A program made the position numbers and the translations under genes. The notes beneath the pieces were generated by a model, which was given only the letters and a program-made list of their open reading frames with translations, was not told the origin of the DNA and searched no databases. DNA of 64,000 bases, from the IMG/VR virus record IMGVR_UViG_3300032046_000009; one strand, given 5' to 3'. Position 1 is the stretch's first letter; each line of letters opens with the position of its first letter. Below are positions 9,746-55,948 of this stretch, in pieces. The stretch is from a virus. Its lineage: Duplodnaviria > Heunggongvirae > Uroviricota > Caudoviricetes.

Positions 9746-9961
9746 TTATGTAAATTGAACCTGTTCTATGTCTTTCTTTTTGATGATTTTTTCGAAACAG
9801 TCAGGGCAGAGCCACGTTAAAGTTATGCCAATTTTTCCTCTTTCTTGTACTTTTCCTTTCAAACGATAAACTTTTAGGCTGTTTTTCCAACAATTAGTGC
9901 AACTATAATAGCTTATTGATGAAATACAAATATTATAATCGGTTTTTGTTAGTTGAATCAT
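9746..9961 (-). CDS. small Zn-ribbon protein, last cassette of array A
   Basis: ATG in JM; ends EQVQFT then TAA (start of JM lost). Confidence 0.65.
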   Translation of the reverse strand: MIQLTKTDYNICISSISYYSCTNCWKNSLKVYRLKGKVQERGKIGITLTWLCPDCFEKIIKKKDIEQVQFT

Positions 9962-10200
9962 GTAAACTCTACCTTCTCTTTGCTGTTGAGAAAATCCTTA
10001 AACCACTTTTCCTTTTCCCATTCTTCAATGGGCGTATGAAAACCTAAAAGCGTCCCATGTTCTTTGTCAAACCTTTTTGAAAAATATCTCTTCCATTCTT
10101 CGTTACAACTTTCGCAGAGAACAGCCAATAATAGTTTAATTGGAAATTGACCGCTAACTATTCTTTTGCATTTTCTACAACGTCCTTTAAATTTTGTCAT
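9958..10200 (-). CDS. small Zn-ribbon protein (family B)
   Basis: JM both ends; CRKC..CESC-x3-W; ends EKVEFT. Confidence 0.7.
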   Translation of the reverse strand: MTKFKGRCRKCKRIVSGQFPIKLLLAVLCESCNEEWKRYFSKRFDKEHGTLLGFHTPIEEWEKEKWFKDFLNSKEKVEFT

Positions 10201-10424
10201 GTAAATTCAACCGTTTCCCGTTCACTCTTCCAATACTCACATGAACAACCTAAACGATAAGAATGTCTAGGACTACCTAACGGAGTTTTCACGTCCCTTA
10301 AAAATCCTGTAGCTTTCCCGTTCGGTTCAGTTAAGTTAGGTTGTGAGCGCATCTCTGTGCATTTATAATAAATCTTGTCGAGATTCCTCTTGTTCGAACA
10401 GTTAAAGCAACCTTTCTCTTTCAA
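10197..10424 (-). CDS. small Cys protein (family C, GCFNC..GCSC)
   Basis: track 10197..10493 trimmed to TTG in JM 10421-10441; ends ETVEFT. Confidence 0.6.
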   Translation of the reverse strand: MKEKGCFNCSNKRNLDKIYYKCTEMRSQPNLTEPNGKATGFLRDVKTPLGSPRHSYRLGCSCEYWKSERETVEFT

Positions 10425-10660
10425 GTGAAATTGACCTTCTCTTTTGTTGTTACTTTGCGTTTTAATAGCCACTTTTTGAAAAAAGACTCCCAAGTATTAT
10501 CTCTTCTATCGTGAAAGAAGTCATGTCGTTCTTGTGATTTTTCCCACAAAATACCATGTGAGTCGCAAAGATAAAGTTTTTCCTCAGTCTGTATATCGTG
10601 ATAATTTGCATAACCTTTTTTACCGCAAATACAACACTTTTTACGGTTTGAATTTATCAT
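10421..10660 (-). CDS. small Zn-ribbon protein (family B)
   Basis: JM both ends; CCICG..CDSHGILW; ends EKVNFT. Confidence 0.7.
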   Translation of the reverse strand: MINSNRKKCCICGKKGYANYHDIQTEEKLYLCDSHGILWEKSQERHDFFHDRRDNTWESFFKKWLLKRKVTTKEKVNFT

Positions 10661-10836
10661 GTGAACTCGACCTGTTCTTTTTCGTTAGCCTTTTTATAAC
10701 AAACATTTAGGGTATTGCCTTTGAATCCTCTTTCTATTGAACATGGTTTGCAATAACACACGTTCGCGCTCAATTTATGCAAACTATCACATATATTATT
10801 GCAAGTGAATCTCTTTCCACAAACTTTACAAATCAT
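10657..10836 (-). CDS. 59-aa 8-Cys protein (family A; not in track)
   Basis: hand translation MICKVCGKRFTCNNIC..CYCKPC..EQVEFT; ATGA overlaps. Confidence 0.6.
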   Translation of the reverse strand: MICKVCGKRFTCNNICDSLHKLSANVCYCKPCSIERGFKGNTLNVCYKKANEKEQVEFT

Positions 10837-11051
10837 GTGAACGTCACCGTTTCCCGTCCCTTTAGACGGTTAATAATCTCTCGCGCCTTCATTTTGTCTA
10901 AGAGTTCCATTATCTCTGGGTTATCGGAAAGTAACTTGTCTATGCGTTCGCCTTGCTCTCTGAGCCTGTCTAGCTCGTACATCATACAATTAAAGCATAA
11001 TTTCTCGTTAATTCGTTGTTTGAACTCGTTTCCACATTTAGAACAAATCAT
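10833..11051 (-). CDS. small Zn-ribbon protein (family B)
   Basis: track 10833..11087 trimmed to ATG in JM; ends ETVTFT. Confidence 0.65.
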   Translation of the reverse strand: MICSKCGNEFKQRINEKLCFNCMMYELDRLREQGERIDKLLSDNPEIMELLDKMKAREIINRLKGRETVTFT

Positions 11052-11194
11052 GTGAAACAGACCTTTTCTCTTCCTTTGTTGTTGCATTGCTTACACATTC
11101 TTGAACCTATCTTCTTTGCATCCGCATAGTTTTTAACGGGAATATTGAGAGGTCTGCCACATTTTGAACACGGTATAACGAGAACGCCCGTCAT
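11048..11194 (-). CDS. 48-aa Zn-ribbon protein (not in track)
   Basis: CSKCG..CKQC; ends EKVCFT; ATGA overlaps. Confidence 0.55.
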   Translation of the reverse strand: MTGVLVIPCSKCGRPLNIPVKNYADAKKIGSRMCKQCNNKGREKVCFT

Positions 11195-11397
11195 GTGAAT
11201 AACACCTTCTCTTTTGGCTCTGGGGTTTTATATAGTTTGGTTCCTCGCGCTTTCATTTGAGAATTAAGTTCTTGACAACATTTATCAATTTCATCATAAT
11301 CAATACTGTTTTCGTGACATTTATCGTGCATCTTGCATTCCGTACACAAATCCTCATAATCGTACTCGATATAACCGTTATCGTCTATTGTTGTCAT
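11191..11397 (-). CDS. acidic Cys-containing small protein
   Basis: track trimmed to ATG in JM 11394; ends EKVLFT. Confidence 0.65.
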   Translation of the reverse strand: MTTIDDNGYIEYDYEDLCTECKMHDKCHENSIDYDEIDKCCQELNSQMKARGTKLYKTPEPKEKVLFT

Positions 11398-11588
11398 GTG
11401 AAACATACCTTCTCCTTTTGTTGTAATTCGATTAAATCTGTATCAGATACAACATACCTTTCGGTTTTATATCTTATATCAATGGTTCTGTTTGACATAA
11501 TTCTTGTAATTTTAACAAATGAACCTTTGGGGCAATGCCTAAAGCCAGCGTATTTTAGCTTTGCCTTATCGCCAACTTGAAACGTCAC
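11394..11588 (-). CDS. small beta-barrel (SH3/KOW-like) protein
   Basis: GTG after GGGTGAT; VGDKA motif; ends EKVCFT. Confidence 0.6.
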   Translation of the reverse strand: MTFQVGDKAKLKYAGFRHCPKGSFVKITRIMSNRTIDIRYKTERYVVSDTDLIELQQKEKVCFT

Positions 11589-11704
11589 GAGAAAATCACC
11601 CGTTCTTTTCTTCTGTCTAGCCAGCGATTAAACTCTGCCGTATGAATGAAACATCTAAGTTTTCCTGTATCTTTGTCGAACACTATTATAGCACAGTCAG
11701 TCAT
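11585..11704 (-). CDS. 39-aa protein (not in track)
   Basis: ATG in JM 11701; ends ERVIFS; GTGA overlap. Confidence 0.45.
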   Translation of the reverse strand: MTDCAIIVFDKDTGKLRCFIHTAEFNRWLDRRKERVIFS

Positions 11705-11994
11705 GTAAACGTCACCTTTTCCCTTTTGTCGTATTCTGTTTTTAAACTGTCCTTTAAAAGCCATCCATTCGGATTTTCTCTCATAAATTGTTCAGCATGA
11801 CTTTTTGCCTCTTCATAAGTGTTAAAGATTCCCTCAGTATCGTATTTTCCTGTTTTATCATCTCTGAGCCAAATCTCTGTGCACTCACATTCATTGGGAG
11901 TATGAGTTTCACAATCTTCATAAACGTCTAAACTAAGAAATTCGGTTCCTATTCTCCACGAATTAGTTCCATCCCAGACCCATTTACCCGTCAT
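11701..11994 (-). CDS. hypothetical small protein
   Basis: track 11701..12042 trimmed to ATG in JM; ends EKVTFT. Confidence 0.65.
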   Translation of the reverse strand: MTGKWVWDGTNSWRIGTEFLSLDVYEDCETHTPNECECTEIWLRDDKTGKYDTEGIFNTYEEAKSHAEQFMRENPNGWLLKDSLKTEYDKREKVTFT

Positions 11995-12188
11995 GTAAAG
12001 TTCACCTTTTCCTTTGCGTCTGGGTATCTTTGCGCTTTGCATTCTTTATGTTTATAGTTAAGAAAAGGCAATAAGCATAGAGGTTTATAGGGGTTCTTTC
12101 TGTGAACCTTATGAGGACATTCTGCCTCATCAATGCAAATAGGGACATCGTGATTTTTCAGAAGAGCCTTTAAGTTTAAATCCGTCAC
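11991..12188 (-). CDS. hypothetical small protein, first gene of array A
   Basis: GTG after GAGGGG; ends EKVNFT. Confidence 0.6.
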   Translation of the reverse strand: MTDLNLKALLKNHDVPICIDEAECPHKVHRKNPYKPLCLLPFLNYKHKECKAQRYPDAKEKVNFT

Positions 12189-14762: not shown

Positions 14763-15050
14763 TTAGGTGAATTGAACACATTCTCTCTCAGGAGCTAAGA
14801 GGTTCCATCTGCCCTTATCATAAATGAATTGTTTTCCTTTGAAAAATAAAAAGTCAAAAGGCAAATCATTTTTACGACAAACTTCGCAAAAATAATGCAA
14901 AAAGTGAGTTTCCCTTATTTTTTGTCTATCGTGTTGTGAAAAACTATCTGTGAAAAAAAGTGTTCCACTTTGTTCTTCCAGAATAGAACCACAAGACGGA
15001 CATTTTCGAGTCAAGCGAATTGAACCGCAAGACGGACAATTTTGAATCAA
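14763..15050 (-). CDS. small double Zn-ribbon protein, terminal cassette
   Basis: TTG in JM 15047; CPSCG x2; ends ECVQFT then TAA. Confidence 0.65.
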   Translation of the reverse strand: MIQNCPSCGSIRLTRKCPSCGSILEEQSGTLFFTDSFSQHDRQKIRETHFLHYFCEVCRKNDLPFDFLFFKGKQFIYDKGRWNLLAPERECVQFT

Positions 15051-15779: not shown

Positions 15780-16667
15780 TTAGGTATCCTCTTCTTTCTT
15801 TTTCAACTTTTCTACGTCTATCTCAGAGCTATCTTCGAAGAACGACCTAAATAAATTGCGCTCTTCTCTTGCGGTGTAAAGCGAACTTGCTATATCGATT
15901 ATGTCCTCTTCGGACATCTTCGCTTTGTAGAGTTTGCCGTAGTTTATTAGGTTGCCTGTCGTGAGGGGCGTTCTAAGTTTTCCGTTCTCGTATTCGGTTC
16001 GCGTCTTTTTGGCAATTTCTACGAACTTCGCAGAAAAGTCATAGTTTCCAGAGAACTTCTTTACCAATTCGCGTTCTTTCTGGGGGCTAAGGTATTCGAT
16101 TATCAGACCTTCAAATCGTCTAATGGTTGCAATGTTCTCGATGAATGTCCCAGAGTAACCCGATTTTTCTGAGGGGTTATAGCTGATAACGAGATAGTGC
16201 TGTGCTGTCCGTGTGAATTGCTTCTTGTATTCTGGAATATACACGTTTCCCCTAAAGTCTGCCAATGATTCCAGAAGTGAAATTATCGATGGTTCTGCAT
16301 AGTTGAACCCGTCTATGTAAAGCAGACCTTTCTCGCTGTTCAACCATTGAATTATGATTCCATCTCTTGTTTCTGTGCTTCCAGCTTTCAGAGTATCACA
16401 TGCCAGCAAATCCCACTTTGTCACGTCCCGTGTTAAGACAATTTCAAAAAGCGGAACCTCTAACAATTCAGCCAACTTGTGAACAAGAGTTGTTTTGCCC
16501 GTCCCCGTTTCGCCGACTAATCTAAGGTTGCCGACAATTTCAAGAATCGCTCTTGACTTTTCAATGTAGCCATGTTCGTCCACGAACTCGATGCCTTTGA
16601 CGTAGATGCCAGCACCTTCAAGTGCTGATTCGACCTTTGCATGAATCTTTTCAAATTCTGAGTTCAT
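15780..16667 (-). CDS. AAA+ ATPase, MoxR/CbbQ/NorQ-like
   Basis: Walker A GETGTGKTT; Walker B LLYIDGF; VWA partner in the adjacent unit. Confidence 0.8.
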   Translation of the reverse strand: MNSEFEKIHAKVESALEGAGIYVKGIEFVDEHGYIEKSRAILEIVGNLRLVGETGTGKTTLVHKLAELLEVPLFEIVLTRDVTKWDLLACDTLKAGSTETRDGIIIQWLNSEKGLLYIDGFNYAEPSIISLLESLADFRGNVYIPEYKKQFTRTAQHYLVISYNPSEKSGYSGTFIENIATIRRFEGLIIEYLSPQKERELVKKFSGNYDFSAKFVEIAKKTRTEYENGKLRTPLTTGNLINYGKLYKAKMSEEDIIDIASSLYTAREERNLFRSFFEDSSEIDVEKLKKKEEDT

Positions 16668-16805
16668 CTTTATTACCTTACGAGTATAGATGCCAGCGTC
16701 CTATTTAAATGTTTGCTTAGAAAGACCATGTTCATTTTAGTTAATCAACTGATTAAAATTTCTCAAAACCCCTCTCCCGCCCGAACCAAAGGTTGCACCA
16801 AAAGT

Positions 16806-17033
16806 TTAAGTAAATTGCACTTCTTCTCTGCCCGATTCTTGGCAATGAAATTGAACAACGTTAAAAGATTCATAAGTAGAGTCTGCCCCAGACAACTTTG
16901 AAAACTCTTCCGAAACTTTTTTTACACACTCAAGACAATAACAGTCATTCGGATTTTTAAGTCTATCACTTTTGCATTTTCCGTTGCAGAAAAAATTGTT
17001 CTTACAATGTGTGCAATGTCTTTTATATTTCAC
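16806..17033 (-). CDS. 8-Cys small protein (family A)
   Basis: CTHCKNNFFCNGKC..CYCLEC; ends EEVQFT then TAA. Confidence 0.65.
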   Translation of the reverse strand: MKYKRHCTHCKNNFFCNGKCKSDRLKNPNDCYCLECVKKVSEEFSKLSGADSTYESFNVVQFHCQESGREEVQFT

Positions 17034-17039
17034 AAGTTA

Positions 17040-17204
17040 TCACATTCGAGTTTTGTTAAGTTTACTTCGTTTCAATTCGCAATAAAGCATAGTCCACAAG
17101 AATTTTTTGGTTAGCTTTATCTTGTGTTTATTGTATTCGAAGAGGTCTTTAGAAATTTCGTCTGCCAATTTTCTACATTCTTTATCGTCAATTATGCAAA
17201 CCAT
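17040..17204 (-). CDS. 54-aa protein (not in track)
   Basis: ATG 6 nt after VWA gene stop; hand translation. Confidence 0.45.
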   Translation of the reverse strand: MVCIIDDKECRKLADEISKDLFEYNKHKIKLTKKFLWTMLYCELKRSKLNKTRM

Positions 17205-17210
17205 TTTTAC

Positions 17211-18938
17211 TCACTTCTGGGTTTCTACGTTTAGATACACGTTTAGGAATCTCTGAGGTAATTCGGATATTTGGTTTATCCGTGTTCGTGAGCACTTCAA
17301 GTTTTTCACTTTGCTTGCGAAGGTTTCTACATTCTCACAGTCACAGAAACCTATGAAGATACATTCAATTCCAGCTTTCGCATATTGGTCGATTAATTCC
17401 TCTGCTTTCGTTTCTTCATCACCACAGAAGCAGAAATCGGACGCAATGACCAGAATCTTTCGGCGTTCGCCTTTAATCGTATTGAACATTCTCAGGCTTG
17501 CCTCTAATCCAACGGAAACCTCAGTACCGCCAGCATTCACCGAAATAGCTCCAATTCTTGCCCGTGTGTTTTCGAAGGTTTCAAAGAAAGTCTTTACTTT
17601 CTGGGTATCTGCCCCAAAGCACCCAATACTGAACCCGTAATCGTCAACGTAATGTCCAAAGACCTCATTCAGTATAGTGGTTATCTTTTCAGCCTCTATT
17701 CGACTAACTGACCCTGAGAAATCGAACCAAAATTGAATTGCGACTTGTTCCTTCTCAAATTTTGTTGTTGTACGCAGATACACATTGCGAACGGTTCCCC
17801 TAAAGCTGTTTGTGTAGATGCGTGGAACAATTGGACTCATCATTTTTCCGCGTTTCTGGAAAATGTCCCGTTGAACTCTCGGTTTCATTTTCTTCTTTAG
17901 TTGATTCAATAGCTCGGAAATTTCAGGCTTGCATTCGTCCAGAAGTTTCGAATACGCCTCAAAATCTGGGTCTGGGGCTGGAATCTCTTCGCCTGTGCCT
18001 TCGCCAGCACCCGAACCTTTCTGCAAATCTTCTAGGTGTTTCTTCTTGTCCTCTTCTGCCTTTTCTTGCTCTTCCTCTTTTTCTAGTAATTGCCTAAGTC
18101 TGTCCGATATTTTGCCCTTTACGTTGCCCCCTCTTCTAGAAACGACATATTCCTTTGTCGTATAGTCAGCGTTCAAGTGTTTAGCTACCAATTCATAAAT
18201 CGTTTGGCAAGACCTTATTATGTCGAGTTTGACACGTTGATATTTCGTCCCCTCTAGCACTTTAAGGGCTGTTTCACAGTCCTTTCTAGCATCTGGGCTT
18301 AGTTTGTTCCATAACTCTGTGCATTTAGCCTCATATAGACCTTCATTGCACAAAATTGCAACCATGTAAACCCCGTCTTGTTGTCCAGCTTGAATTGTCA
18401 TGTTTGGAATTTCGTTTTCGCCTAAGTTTTCGCCCTTCGGTAAGATGGTTGACATGGCTATTTGTGGCTTTTCAATTGTGTTGTCTATCATGTCTTTTAG
18501 TATCAAATTCGCCAAAAGTAGCCTCTTGCCGACATCAAACCTGTATCTGAGAATTATGAAATGATTCACGCGCTTATCTTCAACTATGTTGCAAACTTCG
18601 TGAGCCAGCTTGTAAAATCCTCTCTGTCGTTTGATTTTTGTTGTCCAATTGTTGAAAAATTCCCAATTCGGTTTTGTTAGAATCAGATGACCGCACTCGT
18701 GAACCATGTCACCGTCTAGGATTTTTCGGAATAGACGGGGCGATGTTTTCACGAAATCGGGATAACTCTGTAAACTCAAAGAAATCTCAAAGTTTTCCAT
18801 ATTGAAAGCAGAAGTTGGTTGTTCTGGAATATACTTGATACGAATCCGTTTGTCCTTCGTAATTGCTATGGCAAGATTCCTCATCTCGTCAAGTATCTTA
18901 GAGAAGTTGTTCGTCTTTGCTTGTTTCTGCTTTGTCAT
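17211..18938 (-). CDS. VWA-domain protein with N-terminal HExxH (CbbO/NorD-like)
   Basis: HECGH; MIDAS DFSGS; VIASDF; acidic linker. Confidence 0.75.
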   Translation of the reverse strand: MTKQKQAKTNNFSKILDEMRNLAIAITKDKRIRIKYIPEQPTSAFNMENFEISLSLQSYPDFVKTSPRLFRKILDGDMVHECGHLILTKPNWEFFNNWTTKIKRQRGFYKLAHEVCNIVEDKRVNHFIILRYRFDVGKRLLLANLILKDMIDNTIEKPQIAMSTILPKGENLGENEIPNMTIQAGQQDGVYMVAILCNEGLYEAKCTELWNKLSPDARKDCETALKVLEGTKYQRVKLDIIRSCQTIYELVAKHLNADYTTKEYVVSRRGGNVKGKISDRLRQLLEKEEEQEKAEEDKKKHLEDLQKGSGAGEGTGEEIPAPDPDFEAYSKLLDECKPEISELLNQLKKKMKPRVQRDIFQKRGKMMSPIVPRIYTNSFRGTVRNVYLRTTTKFEKEQVAIQFWFDFSGSVSRIEAEKITTILNEVFGHYVDDYGFSIGCFGADTQKVKTFFETFENTRARIGAISVNAGGTEVSVGLEASLRMFNTIKGERRKILVIASDFCFCGDEETKAEELIDQYAKAGIECIFIGFCDCENVETFASKVKNLKCSRTRINQISELPQRFLNVYLNVETQK

Positions 18939-20028: not shown

Positions 20029-20154
20029 CTAATCGAACCGAACTTTCTCTTTTTGTTTATACAATAGTTTTAGACATTCGGGACAAAAAAGTGCACGACT
20101 TCCAGCGAAGGGTTTGCAGAACCAAAGTTTTCCACATCTAAAACATTCTATCAT
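20029..20154 (-). CDS. 41-aa Zn-ribbon protein (not in track), last cassette of array E
   Basis: CFRCG..CPEC; ends EKVRFD + TAG; abuts G-rich hub. Confidence 0.5.
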   Translation of the reverse strand: MIECFRCGKLWFCKPFAGSRALFCPECLKLLYKQKEKVRFD

Positions 20155-20165
20155 TTTCTCTTCTG

Positions 20166-20396
20166 TCAATCGAAACTCACCTTTTCTGGAATCCGAAACA
20201 TAAGTTCAGAAATTCTAATATCGACTTTTCTCTTCTTTATCAGACAAACCATTTGCATTGGAAAATTTCTCTCTTTTTTATGTAGTTCCGCAGACCTAGT
20301 TAATCGGTTGCTCAATGCTTGTAAAGTATGAATTTCACTTTTCAATTCGACAAGTGGTTTCTTTTTCCATTGTGCAAGCGGAGATTTATGGGTCAT
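20166..20396 (-). CDS. basic small protein
   Basis: ATG in JM 20393; ends EKVSFD. Confidence 0.65.
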   Translation of the reverse strand: MTHKSPLAQWKKKPLVELKSEIHTLQALSNRLTRSAELHKKERNFPMQMVCLIKKRKVDIRISELMFRIPEKVSFD

Positions 20397-20608
20397 GTGA
20401 ATGACACCGTTTCTTTAGCTTTACAGAATCGTGAACAAACTTCTTTCAAATCTTTTGGGTATTCCCCAACTTCGGATTTCTCAAACTTTCGCGCACAATC
20501 GGAGCAATAACAACCCCCGTATTGCACTTTGCCATGACTAAGACCTAATCTAGCGCACCCATTATTGCACACGAAATGTTTTCCGCATTTTCCACAAATT
20601 TTGTTCAT
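20393..20608 (-). CDS. 8-Cys small protein (family A)
   Basis: CGKCGKHFVCNNGC..CYCSDC; JM both ends. Confidence 0.7.
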   Translation of the reverse strand: MNKICGKCGKHFVCNNGCARLGLSHGKVQYGGCYCSDCARKFEKSEVGEYPKDLKEVCSRFCKAKETVSFT

Positions 20609-20883
20609 GTGAATCGAACAACCTCTCTCATATTAAACCAGAGATTCCAGCAATATTCCCATCTTCCAAAATGTTTCCCATGAAAGATGCCCCATTCGTC
20701 ATAACATCCTCTACAAATCCAGATGTTATGTTTAAATCCGCTATTTACTAAAAAGATTAAAACCGCATCTATCGTTTTGGTATCTTCGTCTTTATGTTCA
20801 AAATTATTAGAATTGCTTACGTGGAACCATTTCTTTTTTGGAAGAGTTACAGTTATTGGTTTTCCACATTTCGAACATTTCAA
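20605..20883 (-). CDS. small Zn-ribbon protein (family B)
   Basis: CSKCG..CRGCYDEW; ends EVVRFT. Confidence 0.7.
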   Translation of the reverse strand: MKCSKCGKPITVTLPKKKWFHVSNSNNFEHKDEDTKTIDAVLIFLVNSGFKHNIWICRGCYDEWGIFHGKHFGRWEYCWNLWFNMREVVRFT

Positions 20884-21089
20884 GTGAACTCTACCTTCTC
20901 TTTGAGTTTGGCTAAATATTCTGGAATATGGTCTGAAATTATTATGTCATTCGGATATTTTTCATGACTCCACTTGACAAAAACCATCCAACATTTTATA
21001 CAAAGAAACGCCCATTTTCCGTTATTCTTTTCTCCGCACACGGGACAAAAATCTGGAAGTTCTTCTTTATCAACGAGTTTGTTTGTCAA
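20880..21089 (-). CDS. small Zn-ribbon protein (family B)
   Basis: track trimmed to TTG in JM 21086; CPVCG..CIKCW. Confidence 0.65.
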   Translation of the reverse strand: MTNKLVDKEELPDFCPVCGEKNNGKWAFLCIKCWMVFVKWSHEKYPNDIIISDHIPEYLAKLKEKVEFT

Positions 21090-21283
21090 GTGAATAACAC
21101 CTTCTCTTTTTCGGGTATTCCCCCATAGCACAATTCAAGTGACCCTATATCTTCAGTAAATTTTGTTCCCCATTTTTTGATTGAACATTCTTTACAATAG
21201 CATAATGTAGCGTCTGGGGAACATTCTTCGTCACAATTACAGAAGAACTTTTTTCCGCAAACTTGGCACGTCATTTCTTTCAA
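21086..21283 (-). CDS. 8-Cys small protein (family A)
   Basis: TTG in JM; CQVCGKKFFCNC..CYCKEC. Confidence 0.7.
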   Translation of the reverse strand: MKEMTCQVCGKKFFCNCDEECSPDATLCYCKECSIKKWGTKFTEDIGSLELCYGGIPEKEKVLFT

Positions 21284-21423
21284 GTGAATTGAACCTCTTC
21301 TTTTTGTTTTCTCACTTCACAAATCGAACGTTGTCTGCAACTCTTTTGACAAAAATCGTCATAATGATTTATCTCCCCGACATCGCAGTAAATTATTTTT
21401 CCAGCGCAGTATATTTCCGTCAT
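21280..21423 (-). CDS. 47-aa Cys-rich protein (not in track)
   Basis: hand translation; ends EEVQFT; JM both ends. Confidence 0.55.
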   Translation of the reverse strand: MTEIYCAGKIIYCDVGEINHYDDFCQKSCRQRSICEVRKQKEEVQFT

Positions 21424-21629
21424 GTGAATTGCACCACTTCTTTTAAGTCAACCTCTTCGCAACCTTCTGGACGACCCGACCCATGATTGCATTTTTCACA
21501 CCAACAAACGCTATATTCGTGAGGACATTTTCCCGTTATTGAAGATTTAGTCCATCCTCTCCCTTTACAAGTGAAAGTTCTACCACAATTACCGCACTTC
21601 TTTGTTAGAGCTAATGGATATTTCTTCAT
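21420..21629 (-). CDS. 8-Cys small protein (family A)
   Basis: CGNCGRTFTCKG..CWCEKC. Confidence 0.7.
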   Translation of the reverse strand: MKKYPLALTKKCGNCGRTFTCKGRGWTKSSITGKCPHEYSVCWCEKCNHGSGRPEGCEEVDLKEVVQFT

Positions 21630-21841
21630 GTAAATTGCACTACCTCTTTATCTACCCTTTTAATAAACTTGTCCCAGAGAAAGGTTGCTTTTGCTTCGGA
21701 TTCTGGAATGTCGGCATCGTTTTTGTGAAGTTCGTAAAAATTATACCATTTTTCTCTGCATTTTTGACAAAGAATATCGTTATTCGTTTGAAAAGATTCA
21801 CCGCATTTTTCACAAATACGATTATAGGATTTTTGTGTCAT
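21626..21841 (-). CDS. small Zn-ribbon protein (family B)
   Basis: CEKCG..CQKCREKW; ends EVVQFT. Confidence 0.7.
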   Translation of the reverse strand: MTQKSYNRICEKCGESFQTNNDILCQKCREKWYNFYELHKNDADIPESEAKATFLWDKFIKRVDKEVVQFT

Positions 21842-21939
21842 GTGAATTGCACTCTCACGGGTTCTTTCTCAATTTCAAAACGGTCATACCATTTTTTGAG
21901 ACTTCTATATTTTGTAAAAATATGTTGTAGATGGTTCAT
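21838..21939 (-). CDS. 33-aa protein
   Basis: track 21838..22041 trimmed to ATG in JM 21936. Confidence 0.45.
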   Translation of the reverse strand: MNHLQHIFTKYRSLKKWYDRFEIEKEPVRVQFT

Positions 21940-24605: not shown

Positions 24606-24893
24606 TCAAGTGAACTGAACTACTTCTTTTATAGCGTTCCTTATATCGCCTAGTGAAGTAATTTTAATATCCAAAATCATCTCATCTGCCATCTGTTGAA
24701 AGTGTTCTATCTCGCTTTCGTGTATCTCTTCAAATGAACATTTAGATATATGTTCTCCGTCATCGTAGTCATCTTCAAAAAACATAGAGCAAAGAGCACA
24801 TTCCTCTGAACCCCCACTTATACCCCCTCTAAATTTTACTGCAAGAGGGTCATTAGAATACGCAAGCCATCTTAAACTAACTTTACGTGTCAT
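24606..24893 (-). CDS. acidic small protein, last cassette of array G
   Basis: ends EVVQFT; its TTGA continues as TTGAGTATGG promoter element. Confidence 0.65.
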   Translation of the reverse strand: MTRKVSLRWLAYSNDPLAVKFRGGISGGSEECALCSMFFEDDYDDGEHISKCSFEEIHESEIEHFQQMADEMILDIKITSLGDIRNAIKEVVQFT

Positions 24894-25105
24894 GTGAACT
24901 CAACCCTCTCTTTTCTTTTTTCTTTCAAAATTAGCTTTTTGAAACATTCGGGACAAAGCCACCAAAACTTGTGAGCAAATTTTACTCTTCCCCCATTGCC
25001 TATTTCTCTAATACTACTTGCGAACTTCTCACAATTATAACAAGTAAGTTTCTCTCTATAATCTGGGGGGTCATAATCTTCTTCTAGCGGAATTTTTTCG
25101 GTCAA
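24890..25105 (-). CDS. small Zn-ribbon protein (family B-like)
   Basis: track trimmed to TTG in JM 25102; CYNC..CPEC. Confidence 0.65.
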   Translation of the reverse strand: MTEKIPLEEDYDPPDYREKLTCYNCEKFASSIREIGNGGRVKFAHKFWWLCPECFKKLILKEKRKERVEFT

Positions 25106-25266
25106 GTGAAACACACAACTTCCTTTTTAGGCTTTTTGCCACTAACATCGCACACAGAATACATGTCACACTTTTGGCATCTGTCTTGTAAATAGTTTGT
25201 GCATATCAAAACTTTCAGAGTAGTTACGCCCGTTTTTATGTTAGCTTGCAGTTGCATTCTTCTCAA
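25102..25266 (-). CDS. 54-aa Cys protein (not in track)
   Basis: TTG in JM; ends EVVCFT. Confidence 0.5.
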   Translation of the reverse strand: MRRMQLQANIKTGVTTLKVLICTNYLQDRCQKCDMYSVCDVSGKKPKKEVVCFT

Positions 25267-25391
25267 GTGAAGGACACCTTTTCTTTATTCTCCAAGATGT
25301 AAATTAATGCCTGAGCAATTATTTGCTGATTCTGTTGGACATTTCCTGTTGGAACAGATTTTAGATTTTTGATTATCTGTTCTCGATTCAA
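25263..25391 (-). CDS. 42-aa protein (not in track)
   Basis: TTG in JM; ends EKVSFT. Confidence 0.45.
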   Translation of the reverse strand: MNREQIIKNLKSVPTGNVQQNQQIIAQALIYILENKEKVSFT

Positions 25392-25537
25392 GTGAATTGC
25401 ACTTCCTCTTGTTCTTCTAAATATGGAATCCCATGAACTATTTTTTGAACCAGATAACGATAACCGTTTTTGTGAAAGACATCTCCAACTTTCAACTCTT
25501 CTCTGTTGGCTTGTCCTCTGGGTATTATTTTGTTCAA
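25388..25537 (-). CDS. 49-aa beta-barrel-like protein (not in track)
   Basis: VGDVF motif; ends EEVQFT. Confidence 0.5.
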   Translation of the reverse strand: MNKIIPRGQANREELKVGDVFHKNGYRYLVQKIVHGIPYLEEQEEVQFT

Positions 25538-25707
25538 GTGAACATCACTATTTCCCTTTCATTTGGTTGCTTGACTTTAAGACATTCTACAAGTCTTTCT
25601 TTCTTTTTCACCCAACAATCAGGACATAAACATTGGTTCATCTTTCTATTTTTCGCATCACATGATTGCTTGCAATTAAACTCTTTTTTACAATTTTTAC
25701 ACTTCAA
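25534..25707 (-). CDS. 57-aa 8-Cys protein (family A; not in track)
   Basis: MKCKNCKKEFNCKQSC..CLCPDC; ends EIVMFT. Confidence 0.6.
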   Translation of the reverse strand: MKCKNCKKEFNCKQSCDAKNRKMNQCLCPDCWVKKKERLVECLKVKQPNEREIVMFT

Positions 25708-25931
25708 GTAAACTTCACCCTTTCCTTTACTTTCTCTTTATCCCATTTTGCGAAAAGGTCTATTCCTTGTTTCCAAGTTATACAACTGCTTCCTGTCGTC
25801 TTAATGGATTTTTCGCTGTGTTTTCCTATATTCTCATATCTCGTTCCATATTGTTCTCCTTTCGTATCACAATATCCTTTTTTTCGGTTGTTAAACAAAC
25901 AGTTGAAACAGCCCTGTGTTGGTAAACTCAA
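25704..25931 (-). CDS. small Cys protein (family C)
   Basis: TTG start; GCFNC..GSSC; ends ERVKFT. Confidence 0.7.
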   Translation of the reverse strand: MSLPTQGCFNCLFNNRKKGYCDTKGEQYGTRYENIGKHSEKSIKTTGSSCITWKQGIDLFAKWDKEKVKERVKFT

Positions 25932-26251
25932 CTGAATTGCACCTTAACCTTTGGTTCTTTACCGTCTTTAGTGAATGGTTTATTAGGGTCAATTATGTTT
26001 ATCGTAAATTGTTCTGAACTATTGTGGTATTCCCAATAAAAACAACCGTCAGCTAAATCTTTGAGAATATAGTCTATACAATCATCGTTACAAACTACGT
26101 CCTCAAAATCTGTGCCATTATATTCTTTCTTAACTTTCTCTTTCACTTGTTCAAGAGTCAAATCTAGCAAACCGCGTTTTCTCAGTTGTTCGACTAACTC
26201 TTCCGCGTCCCCAACTTGAAAATCATCTAAGATTTTTAATCCGACAATCAT
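25928..26251 (-). CDS. acidic hypothetical protein
   Basis: 107 aa; ends VKVQFS. Confidence 0.7.
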   Translation of the reverse strand: MIVGLKILDDFQVGDAEELVEQLRKRGLLDLTLEQVKEKVKKEYNGTDFEDVVCNDDCIDYILKDLADGCFYWEYHNSSEQFTINIIDPNKPFTKDGKEPKVKVQFS

Positions 26252-26469
26252 GTGAATTTCACCATTTCTGGTTCTACGTCCTCAACTTTTCTGTAACCGC
26301 ATTTTTTAATTCCTTTCGCGGTATCTAAGCGTTGTTTTCTCGTACATTCTTCACAATAACATTCATGTATCTTTTTGTGAAATTGTGAAACTCGAATGCC
26401 GACAGAACACATATCATTACCATTACAGTAAAATTCTTTTTTGCAATTCGCACATCTGACCTTAATCAT
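26248..26469 (-). CDS. 8-Cys small protein (family A)
   Basis: CANCKKEFYCNG..CYCEEC; ends EMVKFT. Confidence 0.7.
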   Translation of the reverse strand: MIKVRCANCKKEFYCNGNDMCSVGIRVSQFHKKIHECYCEECTRKQRLDTAKGIKKCGYRKVEDVEPEMVKFT

Positions 26470-37076: not shown

Positions 37077-37213
37077 GTAAACTCAACTCTTTCTTTCTGT
37101 TGAATATAAAATCCGTCAGCTATACAGAAATATTGTTTCTTCTCATCGTCCCATTCTTTGCCCCAACAATCCATTTGACAACCTTTGCACTTATGTTCTG
37201 GAAGTTCGGTCAT
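37073..37213 (-). CDS. 46-aa Cys protein (not in track)
   Basis: CKGCQMDC; ends ERVEFT. Confidence 0.55.
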   Translation of the reverse strand: MTELPEHKCKGCQMDCWGKEWDDEKKQYFCIADGFYIQQKERVEFT

Positions 37214-38763: not shown

Positions 38764-38999
38764 GTGAACACAACCTTCTCTCTAGTATAGTCTGCAATTT
38801 TCCCCTTAAATACTTCCCAAGTTGGGTTTATTTTCTTAGGATATTTAGCAACAAAAAATGTATTATGGTCAGCAAAAAACTCTAGCCATTTTCTTAGACA
38901 AGAACCACAAAGAATAGCGTCTATAGAATGAGGATATTTTAGTTTATCTTCTGTCACCGTGAAAACTCGTCCACATTTCTCACAGTTTCTTTTAGTCAA
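38760..38999 (-). CDS. small Zn-ribbon protein (family B)
   Basis: track trimmed to TTG 38997-38999; CEKCG..CGSCLRKW. Confidence 0.6.
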   Translation of the reverse strand: MTKRNCEKCGRVFTVTEDKLKYPHSIDAILCGSCLRKWLEFFADHNTFFVAKYPKKINPTWEVFKGKIADYTREKVVFT

Positions 39000-39225
39000 A
39001 GCTAACAACTTCTGGACGTTCCTCTTCTGCAAGAACTTCCTTTGCACTTCCTTCCATGTTTCCTAAAATATAAGTGAATCCTTTTTCTTTACCTTCCGTA
39101 CAAAGTTCATACCATCTTGCAAGTCGTCTGAGATGTTCTTCACTTTTAAAATGAGTATCAACGCCTCTCTTTGTTGCAAAGTTTTTCTTGCACAAACCAC
39201 AACGCGCGTAGAATTTCTTAGGCAT
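38992..39225 (-). CDS. C2H2 zinc-finger protein
   Basis: C-x2-C-x12-H-x5-H (CGLCKKNF..HFKSEEH); ends EVVSFD. Confidence 0.65.
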   Translation of the reverse strand: MPKKFYARCGLCKKNFATKRGVDTHFKSEEHLRRLARWYELCTEGKEKGFTYILGNMEGSAKEVLAEEERPEVVSFD

Positions 39226-42251: not shown

Positions 42252-42499
42252 GTGAACTGCACTACCTCTGGGTCCTCTGGTACTATAAAAACTTTGTTGC
42301 TATGCTCAAAATATGTCCCATCTGTTTTTCTATTCCAAATACACGTCAATGATTCTTTGTCGAAAAGATGTACTCTTCGAACAAACTGAGCATGACAATC
42401 TTTACATTCCATACATACTTCTTTCTTTTCTATATTTCGTGAATGGCACATAGGGCATTTAGTGAAGTTGAATTTTAAACCAAAAGTATTGAGAGCTAT
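42248..42499 (-). CDS. Lar-like Zn-ribbon protein with ATA in the JM start slot
   Basis: homology to 44551..44823 (KCPMC.SRN) extends upstream of track ATG to JM 42496, which reads ACATAG. Confidence 0.5.
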   Translation of the reverse strand: MALNTFGLKFNFTKCPMCHSRNIEKKEVCMECKDCHAQFVRRVHLFDKESLTCIWNRKTDGTYFEHSNKVFIVPEDPEVVQFT

Positions 42500-42726
42500 G
42501 TGAATTCCACCTTCTCCTTTGCATCAATTCCAAAATCCATTCTACTTCTACAACGCTCTTTTCCAGAGACAATTTCTCTGCCACCCTTCTCTCTCTCAAA
42601 TTCTTGAATGCAAGCCCCACAATAGCAAGCAGTTTCTTGTTTAGCTTTAAGTTCTATTCCACATTCTCCGTGACACATAAAACTGCAATGGCAATAACAA
42701 CACTTTTTATGATACCATCGTTTCAT
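42496..42726 (-). CDS. 8-Cys small protein (family A)
   Basis: CCYCHCSFMCHGEC..CYCGAC; ends EKVEFT + TAG. Confidence 0.7.
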   Translation of the reverse strand: MKRWYHKKCCYCHCSFMCHGECGIELKAKQETACYCGACIQEFEREKGGREIVSGKERCRSRMDFGIDAKEKVEFT

Positions 42727-42971
42727 GTAAACTGCACCTTTACTGGTCTATTTATTCTCTTTGTTCTTACTTTTAGTCCTAAGTAATTTGAAAAATACAT
42801 ACCGAACTCATAAGCATGTTCTTCACAAAATTCATCGTGGCATATATGTGTTATTTTTGTAGCAAATTCACGAGTGCTCCCTTCGCTTCGCACCATTTTG
42901 TATGACAAAATAATCTCTGATTCTTTTCTACAATCAACCGCGAGACAACAGGTTAAAACACGACCATTCAA
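42723..42971 (-). CDS. small protein (family E), paralog of 44306..44554
   Basis: track trimmed to TTG in JM 42968; AYEFGMYFSNYLGLKV. Confidence 0.6.
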   Translation of the reverse strand: MNGRVLTCCLAVDCRKESEIILSYKMVRSEGSTREFATKITHICHDEFCEEHAYEFGMYFSNYLGLKVRTKRINRPVKVQFT

Positions 42972-43096
42972 GTAAACTGCACCTTTTCCCTTCTGTGTTT
43001 GTTCTGTCTCCAAATTGCAACAACAAGCATCCAATCTATTACTCTAGCTTTGTATTGAATTTCTGTATCCCAATTATCAAATAACTTTGACTTCAC
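42968..43096 (-). CDS. 42-aa protein (not in track)
   Basis: GTG in JM variant ACGTGA; ends EKVQFT. Confidence 0.4.
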   Translation of the reverse strand: MKSKLFDNWDTEIQYKARVIDWMLVVAIWRQNKHRREKVQFT

Positions 43097-43446
43097 GTAA
43101 ATTGCACCTTTTCTCTAGTGATTCCTTCTCTGGAAGCCCAACGTATATTAGATGCGATTCCATTTACACGACATTGAGTTTGTGATAAAAATTCAATCTC
43201 AGTTATTAGTATTTCCCCTGTAGTAGTTTCAATCATTGGTTTTGAATCCTTCATTGATGTACTTTCTATATGAAGCCTGAACATTTTGTTATTATCACAA
43301 TCTTTACATAATTTCTGTGCGTTATCTATTTTAAGTTCGATTTCCCAAATGTCGCCACCATTCACTTTTACTGTCATATCGACTGATGAAATCCCCTCAT
43401 ATTTCTTGTTACCCTGAACTAGATATGCCCGTAAAAATTTGCTCAT
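43093..43446 (-). CDS. hypothetical protein
   Basis: track trimmed to ATG in JM 43443; ends EKVQFT. Confidence 0.6.
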   Translation of the reverse strand: MSKFLRAYLVQGNKKYEGISSVDMTVKVNGGDIWEIELKIDNAQKLCKDCDNNKMFRLHIESTSMKDSKPMIETTTGEILITEIEFLSQTQCRVNGIASNIRWASREGITREKVQFT

Positions 43447-43658
43447 GTAAACTTCACCTTTACAGGTCTCTTTAATTCTTCTCTCCATTCAGTAGCAATT
43501 CTTTTCCATTTTGAAAGACGTAAAGTTTTATTACGGTCTTTGATATATATTCTTACTCTTTTTATCATTTTGCGTTTTTGTCTTTTTGCCTCTAATACCA
43601 TTGCAATAATTAGACCACAAATTGTACTTATCATTCCAATAATTAGTAGTTCAGTCAT
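43443..43658 (-). CDS. small membrane protein with basic tail
   Basis: N-terminal TM; ends VKVKFT. Confidence 0.65.
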   Translation of the reverse strand: MTELLIIGMISTICGLIIAMVLEAKRQKRKMIKRVRIYIKDRNKTLRLSKWKRIATEWREELKRPVKVKFT

Positions 43659-43882
43659 GTAAATTGCACTACCTCTCGTTCTAATTCTGGATGACTTTCT
43701 GGTTTAGCTATTATCTGTCCGCAATTGTGACATTGAACAACTTTGTTATAAGAATTCCATTTTATTGCTCCATTATATCCACAACCGAAACAAATATTAG
43801 AATGTATAGACCTATGTTCTCGCGTAGTCAAACGAACCAAACCACAATCTTTATCATAATGCAAAACTTTGAGTTGTTTCAT
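43655..43882 (-). CDS. small Zn-ribbon protein
   Basis: CFGCG..CHNCG; ends EVVQFT. Confidence 0.65.
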   Translation of the reverse strand: MKQLKVLHYDKDCGLVRLTTREHRSIHSNICFGCGYNGAIKWNSYNKVVQCHNCGQIIAKPESHPELEREVVQFT

Positions 43883-44061
43883 GTGAATTGAACCTTCTCC
43901 CGTTCATTCATAATTGACACATAAACCGTACAATGTTCTCTTATTCTGCAAGATTTTATGCAATATTCTTTGTTAAGCGAATTATGTACTGTGCATCCCG
44001 AAATACTCCATTTAACGTTCAGTTTAGAAGGATGCGTTAAAAGAACTGGTTCAGCACTCAT
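43879..44061 (-). CDS. small Cys protein
   Basis: 60 aa; ends EKVQFT. Confidence 0.6.
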   Translation of the reverse strand: MSAEPVLLTHPSKLNVKWSISGCTVHNSLNKEYCIKSCRIREHCTVYVSIMNEREKVQFT

Positions 44062-44309
44062 GTAAACTGCACCACTTCTCGTTCTTCATATTTCCCACTC
44101 ATAAAGTTTTCCCAAGAATTAGTCCACGCACTTTGGAATTTAATAGAATCAACATTCTTTACTTCCTTATCATAAACTTTTCCCCACGCCGCACGACAAT
44201 TTGGGCAAAGATAAACAGTTTCCAAATTTTGTCCATTTTTATCAATTGGATGTACTCTTACTAACGCATCAGACATATTATTGCACTTGTCACATGGTCT
44301 CTTCATCAT
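44058..44309 (-). CDS. small Zn-ribbon protein (family B)
   Basis: CDKC..CPNCRAAW; ends EVVQFT. Confidence 0.7.
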   Translation of the reverse strand: MMKRPCDKCNNMSDALVRVHPIDKNGQNLETVYLCPNCRAAWGKVYDKEVKNVDSIKFQSAWTNSWENFMSGKYEEREVVQFT

Positions 44310-54525: not shown

Positions 54526-55238
54526 TACTTCTCAGCCTTTTGTGCTTTCTCAAGTTTCTTTTTCAGTTCGGCTATGTGAGCGTCTTTCTTCTTTACTTCT
54601 TCTATGATTTTTGCAGTTTCGGGGTCAATCAATGGTATCATTTCTTCTTTTGTGGGTATCATAGTTTCTGGTTTCTTAAATTGTTCGGCTAGTTTTGCTT
54701 GGCGTTCAGCTTCCATTGCGGCACGTTCTTTCTTCTGTAGTTCATATGCTTCCGCTTTTCTAGTTTCCTGATAGTCTGTCTGGGTTTTTCTGAAAATTTC
54801 ATATTTGTAAATATCAGCGTTACTTATCGAATCTGGAACCACCTTTATGTCATCAGGCACACCCATTGCAATTTTTCGTTCACGATTCTTGGTAGCTTGT
54901 TCGCTTCTAATTTGCCAATTACGACATTTCTGGCACATTGATTTCTCTGGAATCATAACATTGTCAACCTCTGTGTTCGGTTCCTTTATTAGTCTTTTTC
55001 CTTTTTCTTCGAGACTTCGAGTTGAACCCTCAATTTTTGTGCCCATACTATTCCATTCGGTTGGAACAGTTTTACGAAATACCTTCTTACATTTAGGGCA
55101 ACCAAAAATATTCCCATCAATAGACTTCGCCAATTCTGTTTTGTCGTCAGGGCAAGTATGTTTCTTGAAGACGTAAACCTTCAACATTGTTACGAAATAA
55201 TCTTGTCCACATGATGAACATTTCTGTTTTTGTTTCAT
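54525..55238 (-). CDS. Zn-ribbon protein with coiled-coil tail
   Basis: CSSCG, CPKC, CQKC; TATA 55274-55281. Confidence 0.7.
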   Translation of the reverse strand: MKQKQKCSSCGQDYFVTMLKVYVFKKHTCPDDKTELAKSIDGNIFGCPKCKKVFRKTVPTEWNSMGTKIEGSTRSLEEKGKRLIKEPNTEVDNVMIPEKSMCQKCRNWQIRSEQATKNRERKIAMGVPDDIKVVPDSISNADIYKYEIFRKTQTDYQETRKAEAYELQKKERAAMEAERQAKLAEQFKKPETMIPTKEEMIPLIDPETAKIIEEVKKKDAHIAELKKKLEKAQKAEK

Positions 55239-55303
55239 ATTTCAATCACTATAAAGGTATTACGCACTCGTCCTATTTAAACTTTGCGTCAGAAACTCCA
55301 TGC

Positions 55304-55483
55304 TCAACTTCTAATCAATGAGAGGGTCAACCATTCATTGACGAGAACCATAATGTCATCTGGGTATTTTGGAAACTCTGGAATATCTAAAAATAGAAAC
55401 AACTCGATAAAGAAGTAAGGCTTTCGGTCTGTCCAATAAATTCTTTGAACCATCGAAGGACGTATTCTAAGTTCTTTTATCAA
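55304..55483 (-). CDS. 59-aa protein (not in track)
   Basis: TTG in JM variant TTCGATTGA; stop in TTGAGCATGG. Confidence 0.5.
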   Translation of the reverse strand: MIKELRIRPSMVQRIYWTDRKPYFFIELFLFLDIPEFPKYPDDIMVLVNEWLTLSLIRS

Positions 55484-55659
55484 TCGAACTTCACCTTTTC
55501 AGACTCTACACGAACTTTATAACAGTCATCAAATGCATGGGGATTCTCAATATACGAACGAGTTTTCTTCCAACATTTTCTACAGAAACATTCTTTGGTT
55601 CTACAGTCTTTAAACTTGGCATCACATTCGAATTCGATACCGCAATTAAGGCATTTCAA
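55480..55659 (-). CDS. 59-aa 8-Cys protein (family A; not in track)
   Basis: MKCLNCGIEFEC..CFCRKC; ends EKVKFD. Confidence 0.6.
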   Translation of the reverse strand: MKCLNCGIEFECDAKFKDCRTKECFCRKCWKKTRSYIENPHAFDDCYKVRVESEKVKFD

Positions 55660-55805
55660 TCGAATTGGACCTTCTCTATTTTATGAAAATAGTTGTAATA
55701 TTCGTGAGCAAGTCGTACAAACCATCTCATACATGCTCTATGATTACTACCACATTGAGTGGTCGGTGGTGGTATTATACATCCCCATGTATTTTTTGGT
55801 TTCAT
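55656..55805 (-). CDS. 49-aa protein (not in track)
   Basis: ATG in JM 55802; ends EKVQFD. Confidence 0.5.
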   Translation of the reverse strand: MKPKNTWGCIIPPPTTQCGSNHRACMRWFVRLAHEYYNYFHKIEKVQFD

Positions 55806-55948
55806 GTGAACGTAACCTTTTCTTCTTCTACAAATTTAATTGCCATCATAATAAAACGAGTGTACCATCCTAAAGCCGCTCTGCATTTGTTATTTCCAAG
55901 TCGAAATTTGTGATTATGGATTTGCCTATATAATTTTGTTTGAGCCAT
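55802..55948 (-). CDS. 48-aa protein (not in track)
   Basis: ends EKVTFT; 23-nt overlap with upstream gene. Confidence 0.4.
   Translation of the reverse strand: MAQTKLYRQIHNHKFRLGNNKCRAALGWYTRFIMMAIKFVEEEKVTFT

Follow-up and report, generated by a model that had tools for sequence, protein, structure and literature searches.

A shared C-terminal tail encoded at the small-gene junctions of an apparently archaeal virus or plasmid

The window analysed here, i.e. the whole stretch of 64,000 nucleotides (nt) of the virus record IMGVR_UViG_3300032046_000009, belongs to an element of apparently archaeal type, in which a recurrent coding motif joins the small genes. We consider it probable that this junction is doubly coded, with a C-terminal peptide as its primary content and a Shine-Dalgarno (SD) site and a recombination site overlaid. 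The primary content would be an exposed C-terminal heptapeptide, [K/R/P]-E-x-V-x-F-[T/S/D]-COOH, on at least 84 small, mostly unrelated proteins. A restart signal would be written over it, the codons GAG-AAG-GTG or GAG-GTN-GTG giving an SD about 8 nt before the ATG or TTG that overlaps the TGA, so that ribosomes could reinitiate from gene to gene in operons of up to 14 or more genes. The resulting repeat of 15-25 nt at every boundary would double as a site of homologous recombination, allowing in-frame insertion, deletion and reordering of genes; recombination would follow from the repeat, perhaps usefully, and would not be the reason for its existence.

Junction motif and tail in the window

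The minus strand holds nearly every gene of the window, and the tail genes lie between positions 9746 and 55948. An earlier note, made from the letters of this DNA, had reported a common tail at many small-gene boundaries, which the census bears out. The motif GTNNNNTTYACWTGA matches the window exactly at 71 sites (69 on the minus and 2 on the plus strand) versus 0.33 expected from shuffles, of which 0 in 100 reach 71, and TTYACNTGA has 74 matches on the minus strand. Each junction-motif site is the 3' end of a small open reading frame (ORF), and the next start, ATG, TTG or rarely GTG, overlaps its TGA. Including variants that end in F-D or F-S or have TAA or TAG stops, 84 ORFs of 33-133 amino acids (aa) end in the tail (82 on the minus and 2 on the plus strand); genes were called with our own simple codon-score caller, and gene and junction counts are approximate. 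The larger genes AAA_5, KaiC-like ATPase, SPFH, RNA ligase, GT2s, Trypsin_2 and protease are without the tail, in agreement with the earlier statement that larger enzyme genes (ATPases, GT2s, ligase, protease) are tail-less, and tail genes do not exceed 133 aa.

At the C-terminus the tail in the window reads [K/R/P]-E-[K/V/R]-V-x-F-[T/D/S]. Val(-4) and Phe(-2) are its invariant positions, there is little constraint at -3 (Q 39%, E 21%), and the wobble base of Thr is restricted to A or T, matching the need for an ATG or TTG start. The use of all four third bases in the Val codon and the near-freedom of x, both noted earlier, are confirmed, and the four plus-strand example strings of the earlier note all lie where it had placed them. 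The supposed near-invariance of TTY-AC stands for the Phe codon but not for AC, which is replaced in the F-D and F-S tails. Likewise E-x-V-x-F-T holds, but the motif is longer than had been described, K, R or P standing at -7 in 84% of tails. Many tail proteins are CxxC zinc-ribbon-like: 53 of the 82 in the window possess at least four Cys and 34 at least two CxxC pairs; 15 of the 82 have none or one.

The minus-strand region 9746..55948 contains 82 small tail genes with larger tail-less enzyme genes interspersed, and consecutive tail genes form runs of up to 14. The longest unbroken run (42496..45533, minus strand) comprises 14 tail genes connected via NTGA overlaps, the last of which (EKVEFT) is TAG-ended and uncoupled. 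Two minus-strand runs of 12 tail genes occur at 36640..39225 and at 9746..12188, the latter closing with a TAA-ended EQVQFT that is followed by a TATA-type promoter. On the same strand, 10 tail genes form a run at 20029..21939, in which the final two end in F-D and the last has a TAG stop and is uncoupled, and 9 form a run at 24606..26469, with a variable position -5 (M, K, R, I, E, V) and a single F-S tail. A typical junction, at 44984..45007 on the minus strand, reads AAA GAG AAG GTG CAA TTC ACT TGA on the coding strand, i.e. K-E-K-V-Q-F-T-stop, with GAGAAGGTG as SD and the TTG of the next gene overlapping the TGA stop. On the plus strand, two tail junctions (EKVEFT and KVQFT, with stops at 49153-49155 and 49269-49271) are found at 49141..49271; since they sit in a small inverted operon, the tail follows gene orientation.

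Conservation of the tail as a peptide

Judged by codons and homologues, the tail peptide is shown to be selected independently of the SD. Within the same genome, TTYAC precedes 56 of the 61 tail-coupled starts but none of the 53 leadered starts and none of the 14 ATGA overlaps without the tail; leadered genes have AAGGT or GGTG with variable spacers. One of these 14 control overlaps, none of which has TTYAC before the start, lies at 45530..45536 on the minus strand, where the upstream protein ends ...GFLRE. Conservation at the junctions is thus not confined to AAGGT and the start codon, as at ordinary SD sites, the pattern that the earlier note had named as speaking against a special motif.

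Tails are also retained where no gene is coupled to them. Those with TAA or TAG stops, whose next start lies 40-380 nt away and often behind a TATA/BRE (B recognition element) promoter, keep E, V, F and T and read EEVQFT, ECVQFT, EHVQFT, EIVQFT etc., with K/AAGGT much rarer; an RRGGT-type SD is present in 76% of coupled versus 45% of uncoupled tails (p=1.4e-4). Minus-strand examples are EEVQFT at 16806..16826 (GAA GAA GTG CAA TTT ACT TAA, with no AAGGT and the next start 141 nt away), ECVQFT at 14763..14783 (TAA stop, no SD) and VKVQFD at 47412..47432 (TAA stop, then a TATA box). A further TAA-ended tail, EVVSFD, lies at 38992..39012 on the minus strand.

Among homologues found via the protein body alone, V-x-F is kept in 262 of 270 and replaced by I-x-F in 3, at a median body identity of about 50% between tail-protein pairs. 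This body-only test supersedes substitution counts in homologous pairs, which are circular for Val and Phe, the residues that define the set. Tail carriers fall into at least 143 BLAST clusters and include Cys-free helical and beta-rich proteins. At the RNA level, pairing probability is not raised at the junctions, Rfam gives no match, and ARAGORN finds neither a transfer-messenger RNA (tmRNA) nor a tRNA.

The window matches metagenome contigs of 86, 137 and 152 kb, and, provided that the 86- and 137-kb contigs are parts of one element, their offsets imply a replicon larger than about 200 kb. In IMG/VR the 21-mer junction has 0 matches; it is present in 51 metagenome loci of the Joint Genome Institute (JGI) from freshwater sediment and peat, and 30 of these 51 as well as L060, a 1.9-kb contig of a Pacearchaeota metagenome-assembled genome (MAG), carry 3 to 25 tails each. 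The 317 distinct tails pooled give the consensus [K/R/P]-E-[K/V/R]-V-x-F-[T 88%, D 7%, S 4%]. Loci with a single match in metagenome and genome scans were set aside as mostly due to chance (8 genome matches versus about 17 expected by our own estimate), and among the genome matches L060 alone possesses an array. INPHARED yields no DNA or protein match, save a weak match of the RNA ligase to a Methanofastidiosa virus.

Sister elements were found by a profile search of 1.84 billion proteins, after which the encoding contigs were retrieved, and they carry lineage-specific tails. Type B (L067, JGI Ga0207433_10004682) has F-[IV]-F-R, with an SD formed by an AGG Arg codon and the TGA, and with Arg encoded as AGA or CGA at TAA and TAG stops. 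Type C (L071, NCBI GCA_041643215.1, JBGGHB010000122.1) has F-V-[LCVM]-S, with Ser as AGT nine times and as TCN eight times and Leu as both CTN and TTR; most of its tails lack an overlapping or closely following start. Type D (L072, Logan SRR32473238) has V-[KR]-[FL]-x-[FL]-T and uses both codon families for Leu, and a single type-A tail (KVQFT) stands amid its type-D tails. Type A' (L070) has E-K-V-x-L-T and is represented by a 2-kb contig only. Gene content is partly shared with the window: types B and C possess an AAA_5 ATPase beside a homologue of about 550 aa of the window's VWA/HExxH gene, types B and D a KaiC-like ATPase, and type D an RNA ligase. Across lineages the SD shifts or vanishes, and the hydrophobic residues at -4 and -2 and a small or polar last residue remain. 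Selection on the nucleotides cannot explain the switching of codon families for Ser, Leu and Arg; peptide and nucleotide selection, held to be inseparable in the earlier note, can be told apart once relatives are included.

Three readings had been proposed for the junction, namely a coupling element, an in-frame recombination linker and a shared C-terminal peptide tag. Of these, the peptide tag has the strongest support, with TTYAC restricted to tail junctions, tails kept when uncoupled, and sister tails that differ; it is also the sole reading that explains the F-T block. Selection at the peptide level would also be met if V-x-F-T of the nascent chain acted inside the ribosome, modulating termination or release by pausing for reinitiation or by protecting the mRNA. 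The tail always stands at the extreme C-terminus beside the stop codon, and in bacteria C-terminal residues affect termination efficiency. Such an action is nevertheless improbable, given that the last genes of operons, with TAA or TAG stops and a promoter behind them, retain the tail, that in type C most tails have no overlapping or close downstream start, and that the last residue varies (T, D, S, R), the constant positions -4 and -2 sitting farther from the peptidyl-transferase centre.

Recombination and translational coupling at the junctions

Gene order is largely conserved among the relatives, with many cassette differences and some rearrangement, and a comparison of breakpoints between near-identical relatives, a check suggested in the earlier note, upholds the recombination reading insofar as, in the alignments, cassette breakpoints and their crossovers are shown to fall inside the motif. 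A cassette of one 55-aa tail gene (44820..44987, minus strand) is missing in L039, where the sequence to either side is 99.4-99.9% identical; the crossover point falls within the junction motif, and the junction of L039 is a hybrid of the two flanking motifs. A two-gene block (43093..43669, minus strand) is absent at this position in L019, whose flank is 98% identical, with both breakpoints in junction motifs and a shared overlap of 15 nt. L029 and L035 differ by a 39-aa gene, again with the crossover inside the motif. The three indel events (window/L039, window/L019 and L029/L035, the relatives being 96-99.9% identical) are independent, and in the latter two 15-25 nt of motif are shared at the crossover. 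Internal segmental duplications, 42245-42341 versus 44548-44647 and 42723-42758 versus 43443-43479 (71-89% identity), lie within the longest tail-gene runs and are consistent with unequal crossing-over between junctions.

The motif might be kept for this very property, as a standard connector for the in-frame shuffling of cassettes. The three indels with crossovers inside the motif, one leaving a hybrid junction, the rearranged gene order among relatives and the tandem paralogues inside the arrays would all suit such a linker, as would the cassettes of T4-type phages discussed below. Selected homology, however, should homogenise the wobble positions, whereas Val uses four codons, Phe two, and -3 is free, which leaves perfect matches short; since the wobble positions are free, the homology is better regarded as a by-product than as a selected property. 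A linker also leaves the amino-acid conservation with its Ser, Leu and Arg family switches unexplained, it needs second-order selection for evolvability, and survivorship bias inflates the precision of the breakpoints, so that we hold it unlikely to be what maintains the motif.

Two known systems resemble the junctions in this respect. In polymorphic toxins, the VENN motif of CdiA and the PxxxxDPxGL motif of Rhs delimit swappable modules; as here, a coding motif borders a variable module and provides the homology for exchange, but these motifs lie inside one large protein before the toxin domain, whereas the junction motif ends many separate small proteins. In T4-type phages, promoter-early stem-loop (PeSL) elements are mobile regulatory cassettes that mediate modular shuffling (Arbiol 2010, PMC2839356; Comeau 2014, PMC4122927). 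They share with the junctions a short conserved sequence repeated between small ORFan genes in hyperplastic regions, and recombination between copies that causes gene insertions and deletions (with PeSL also replacements) among close relatives. PeSL elements, in contrast, are intergenic and combine a promoter with a terminator hairpin, whereas the junction is coding, has neither hairpin nor promoter (promoters form separate boxes), and is conserved at the amino-acid level. Integron attC sites (imperfect inverted repeats of 57-141 bp with a GTTRRRY core) were considered and rejected, the junction being 21-24 nt long with no inverted repeat or hairpin; there is no integrase among the large proteins scanned.

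The coupling layer is, by its sequence features, ordinary SD-assisted termination-reinitiation as documented for archaea, in which stop and start codons that overlap, together with SD motifs inside genes, are an established means of coupling (Huber et al. 2019, PMC6728339). Overlaps of the NTGA type (4 nt) between called genes number 75, of which 61 carry the tail and 14 do not; co-directional genes with a -4 overlap, the arrangement that defines such coupling, are therefore found at 61 tail and 14 non-tail junctions. The SD-forming codons are strongly enriched at -6 to -4, which agrees with the coupling reading of the earlier note, as does the overlap of start and stop: K(-5) is AAG in 94% of tails versus 27% in gene bodies (p=1.6e-62), V(-4) is GTG in 55% versus 9%, and E(-6) is GAG in 54% versus 25%, while the wobble of Phe (TTT/TTC) and Gln (CAA/CAG) in tails equals body usage. 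This GAG-AAG-GTG bias places an SD 8 nt before the ATG or TTG overlapping the TGA, and an SD 4-mer begins 12-17 nt upstream of the start at 52 of the 61 tail junctions. TTG is the start at 25 of the 61 tail-coupled junctions (41%) versus 10 of 53 leadered genes. The TTG starts are confirmed by CxxC motifs that begin at codon 3, and their frequency suggests that start-codon choice is relaxed during reinitiation.

Like the archaeal cases, these junctions combine a same-strand overlap of 4 nt with AAGGTG or GAGGT 8-12 nt upstream in the preceding ORF and an enrichment of SD-forming codons. They differ in that ordinary coupled pairs share no peptide, whereas here the spacer F-T and Val are fixed as amino acids, and in that the arrangement concerns subunit pairs there but extends over more than 60 consecutive junctions here, where the tail survives without a coupled gene. 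The 20-nt block could in principle be nothing other than an RNA signal for termination-reinitiation, its peptide being a mere translation: the codon bias at -6 to -4 is strong, 61 of 75 NTGA overlaps have the block, the start codon accounts for the restriction of Thr wobble to A/T, and the archaeal precedent exists. As the sole explanation, however, this is largely refuted and now very improbable. TTYAC is missing at all other starts and at 14 ATGA overlaps that look functional, and tails persist before TAA or TAG stops with no downstream start, where the SD is less frequent. Moreover, variation falls on synonymous sites with period 3, T changes to D or S via two-base changes, and the tails of sister lineages are still hydrophobic, with the SD moved or absent and both Ser, Leu and Arg codon families in use. 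The derivation of all tail proteins from a single paralogue family expanded by tandem duplication, with the tail as its slowest-evolving, functionless remnant, fits the Cys and CxxC counts given above, the tandem paralogues and the mechanistic ease of duplication via the junction repeat, but is hardly credible against the at least 143 BLAST clusters with Cys-free helical and beta-rich members, and 97% V-x-F retention at about 50% body identity means purifying selection, and so function, even under common descent.

Possible role of the tail and setting of the element

The tail alternates conserved E, V and F at -6, -4 and -2 after a charged linker, a pattern that suggests an exposed beta-strand docking motif. 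In an AlphaFold2 model of one family (mean predicted local distance difference test, pLDDT, 70), residues 79-86 have a pLDDT below 50 and cover most of the tail (82-88) and the preceding linker, so that the model gives no sign of the tail belonging to the fold. This usable model has no significant match in a Foldseek search against PDB, and Pfam holds no family for the tail proteins, whose close homologues are few. Tentatively, the tail may be a docking tag by which one machine handles all the small proteins, most likely so that an AAA+ protease or unfoldase turns them over or processes them at set times, with the MoxR-AAA_5 and VWA/HExxH pair, the element's LonB and the host PAN/proteasome as candidates; sorting, packaging or export would be an alternative role. 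The MoxR-type AAA_5 ATPase (15780-16667) and a 575-aa protein (17211-18938) form a pair at 15780..18938 on the minus strand that is kept in tail types A, B and C. The 575-aa protein has an N-terminal HExxH (HECGH) and a C-terminal VWA domain with a DxSxS metal ion-dependent adhesion site (DFSGS) and is 42% identical to the VWA protein of L067; this circumstantial association makes the pair a speculative candidate for the tail reader. The archaeal-type LonB encoded just outside the window may be another.

More broadly, and with equal reserve, the tails might constitute a lineage-specific C-terminal 'address code' of large archaeal viruses and extrachromosomal elements, in which a beta-strand tag (VxFT, FVFR, FVLS, [FL]xFT) co-evolves with an element-encoded reader (e.g. 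MoxR-AAA_5/VWA-HExxH or LonB) that sorts, packages, exports or destroys at least 80 small host-takeover proteins, the DNA of the tag serving as restart and in-frame crossover site in a self-standardising cassette system.

Several points weigh against a doubly coded junction with the peptide as its primary content. The tail proteins are predicted from the DNA, the usable AlphaFold2 model rests on 8 sequences, and a second model reaches a pLDDT of 49. A nascent-peptide effect on termination, improbable as it is, would equally give peptide-level selection. A domain known to bind peptides was not found in the element: the HtrA-like Trypsin_2 protein (61814-62686) has no detectable PDZ domain, and the large uncharacterised proteins are without a Pfam or PHROG match. 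For the recombination layer, the independent events are three only, and among tightly packed genes boundary-precise indels alone are likely to survive.

Short exposed terminal peptides on unrelated proteins are likewise found as ssrA degrons, C-terminal signals of type IV secretion and capsid-targeting or encapsulin cargo peptides. The present tail is alike in this and is lineage-specific, as expected if it co-evolves with a reader. It differs in that it is encoded in each gene and not added from a tmRNA; none of these signals resembles it in sequence, and none is known to act at the same time as a restart site for ribosomes. Searches of the literature gave no relevant account of a C-terminal tail common to small proteins of viruses or archaea, and a genome-wide, lineage-specific tail that serves also as restart and crossover site seems to be new, the coupling layer by itself being ordinary.

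Five further candidates were rejected. A C-terminal PDZ/HtrA ligand, which has a hydrophobic last residue and a conserved residue at -2 ([S/T]-x-hydrophobic or Y-x-F), does not agree with a tail that ends in T, D, S or R and is conserved at -2, -4 and -6, PDZ itself not being detected. The consensus [KRP]-E-[KVR]-V-x-F-T does not fit the PCNA-interacting protein (PIP) box, Q-x-x-[ILM]-x-x-[FY]-[FY]. Archaeosortase-type sorting signals (PGF-CTERM etc.), in which a transmembrane helix and a basic tail come after a signature motif, are excluded by a tail of 7 residues with no hydrophobic helix, and an ssrA/tmRNA tag by a tail that is encoded in each gene, ARAGORN finding no tmRNA. Programmed frameshifting or readthrough is excluded by GTN NNN TTY ACW TGA, which contains no slippery site (X XXY YYZ), and by the ATG or TTG that the next ORF possesses, with N-terminal CxxC motifs from codon 3 onwards.

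If the tail is a tag, one six-residue handle would open the 'dark matter' of small proteins of uncultivated archaeal elements to experiment: the proteins could be traced in metaproteomes by their C-terminal peptide, pulled down with a common partner and studied as a class, and the junction would be a plain natural example of peptide, reinitiation and recombination constraints acting at once on one short sequence. The lineage variants show the drift of such a code. As a sharp annotation marker, the tail confirms where very small genes stop and which of their TTG starts are real, and in metagenomes it picks out a group of elements whose members at present escape IMG/VR and phage databases.

The element is archaeal in type by its gene and promoter features: BRE/TATA promoters with a conserved upstream box head the tail-gene operons, LonB is archaeal-type, and the KaiC-like ATPases are of archaeal families. 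The nearest taxon-named homologues of LonB are almost all from Bathyarchaeota/Bathyarchaeia MAGs (52-57% identity), and the host is possibly a member of the Bathyarchaeia. Neither the window nor its flanks yielded virion hallmark genes, no Borg-like tandem repeats were observed, and the element may be either a virus or a plasmid. Its close relative L074 (64% identical) encodes an MCM helicase as well. L061 (1-9724), upstream of window position 64000, contains LonB, then a glycan-synthesis cluster (PIG-L, SDR, hexapeptide transferase, Anp1/GT2, Asn synthase, UDP-GlcNAc 2-epimerase and UDP-glucose dehydrogenase), then ParB_N, GT2 and Trypsin_2, in the same order as in L074. A LonB homologue (57% identity) is also present in L075 (8373-21809; Logan SRR22388287), a 183-kb contig of a jumbo tailed virus, where it lies between the portal and HK97-type capsid genes and beside the large terminase. 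No tails were seen in this region of L075, and the position of its LonB suggests a Lon-type head-maturation protease.

A promoter cassette composed of TGAGCATGGnnnTTCT, about 8 nt and BRE/TATA (AAGGTTTATATAGGACG) occurs 28 times versus 1.5 expected, with 25 coding-strand sites in the window. One such box, TGAGYATGGnnnTTCT followed by an archaeal BRE/TATA (TTTATA), is located at 45956..45971 on the minus strand; other sites, all on the coding strand, are 60848-60863, 55291-55306, 50871-50886, 40245-40260, 36627-36642, 24593-24608 and 16719-16734. The starts of operons are standardised too, as the leading TGA of the cassette is usually the stop of the upstream gene. A palindrome, TTAATCA-NN-TGATTAA, has 45 strand matches with at most 2 mismatches versus 0.17 expected, corresponding to about 25 sites, among them 9267-9282, 9332-9347, 14285-14300, 14357-14372, 16741-16756, 19008-19923, 28191-28264, 36217-36283, 40326-40341 and 40659-40674. 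The sites are often paired, in intergenic gaps beside promoters, and the palindrome has the look of an operator for a dimeric regulator. Between operons lie gaps of about 0.7-1.1 kb (18939-20028, 45907-46602 and 35835-36639) that contain no confident gene and give no Rfam match; they are rich in palindromes and promoter boxes. A conserved non-coding string, CCCCTACCCCTAGCTA, follows operon-terminal tails in the window (~19985-20028) and in L052 (~3111-3140), and likewise conserved leaders containing GGGCGGGAG, also behind operon-terminal tails and about 140 nt upstream of the AAA_5 gene, are present in the window (~16668-16805) and in L046 after 12609.

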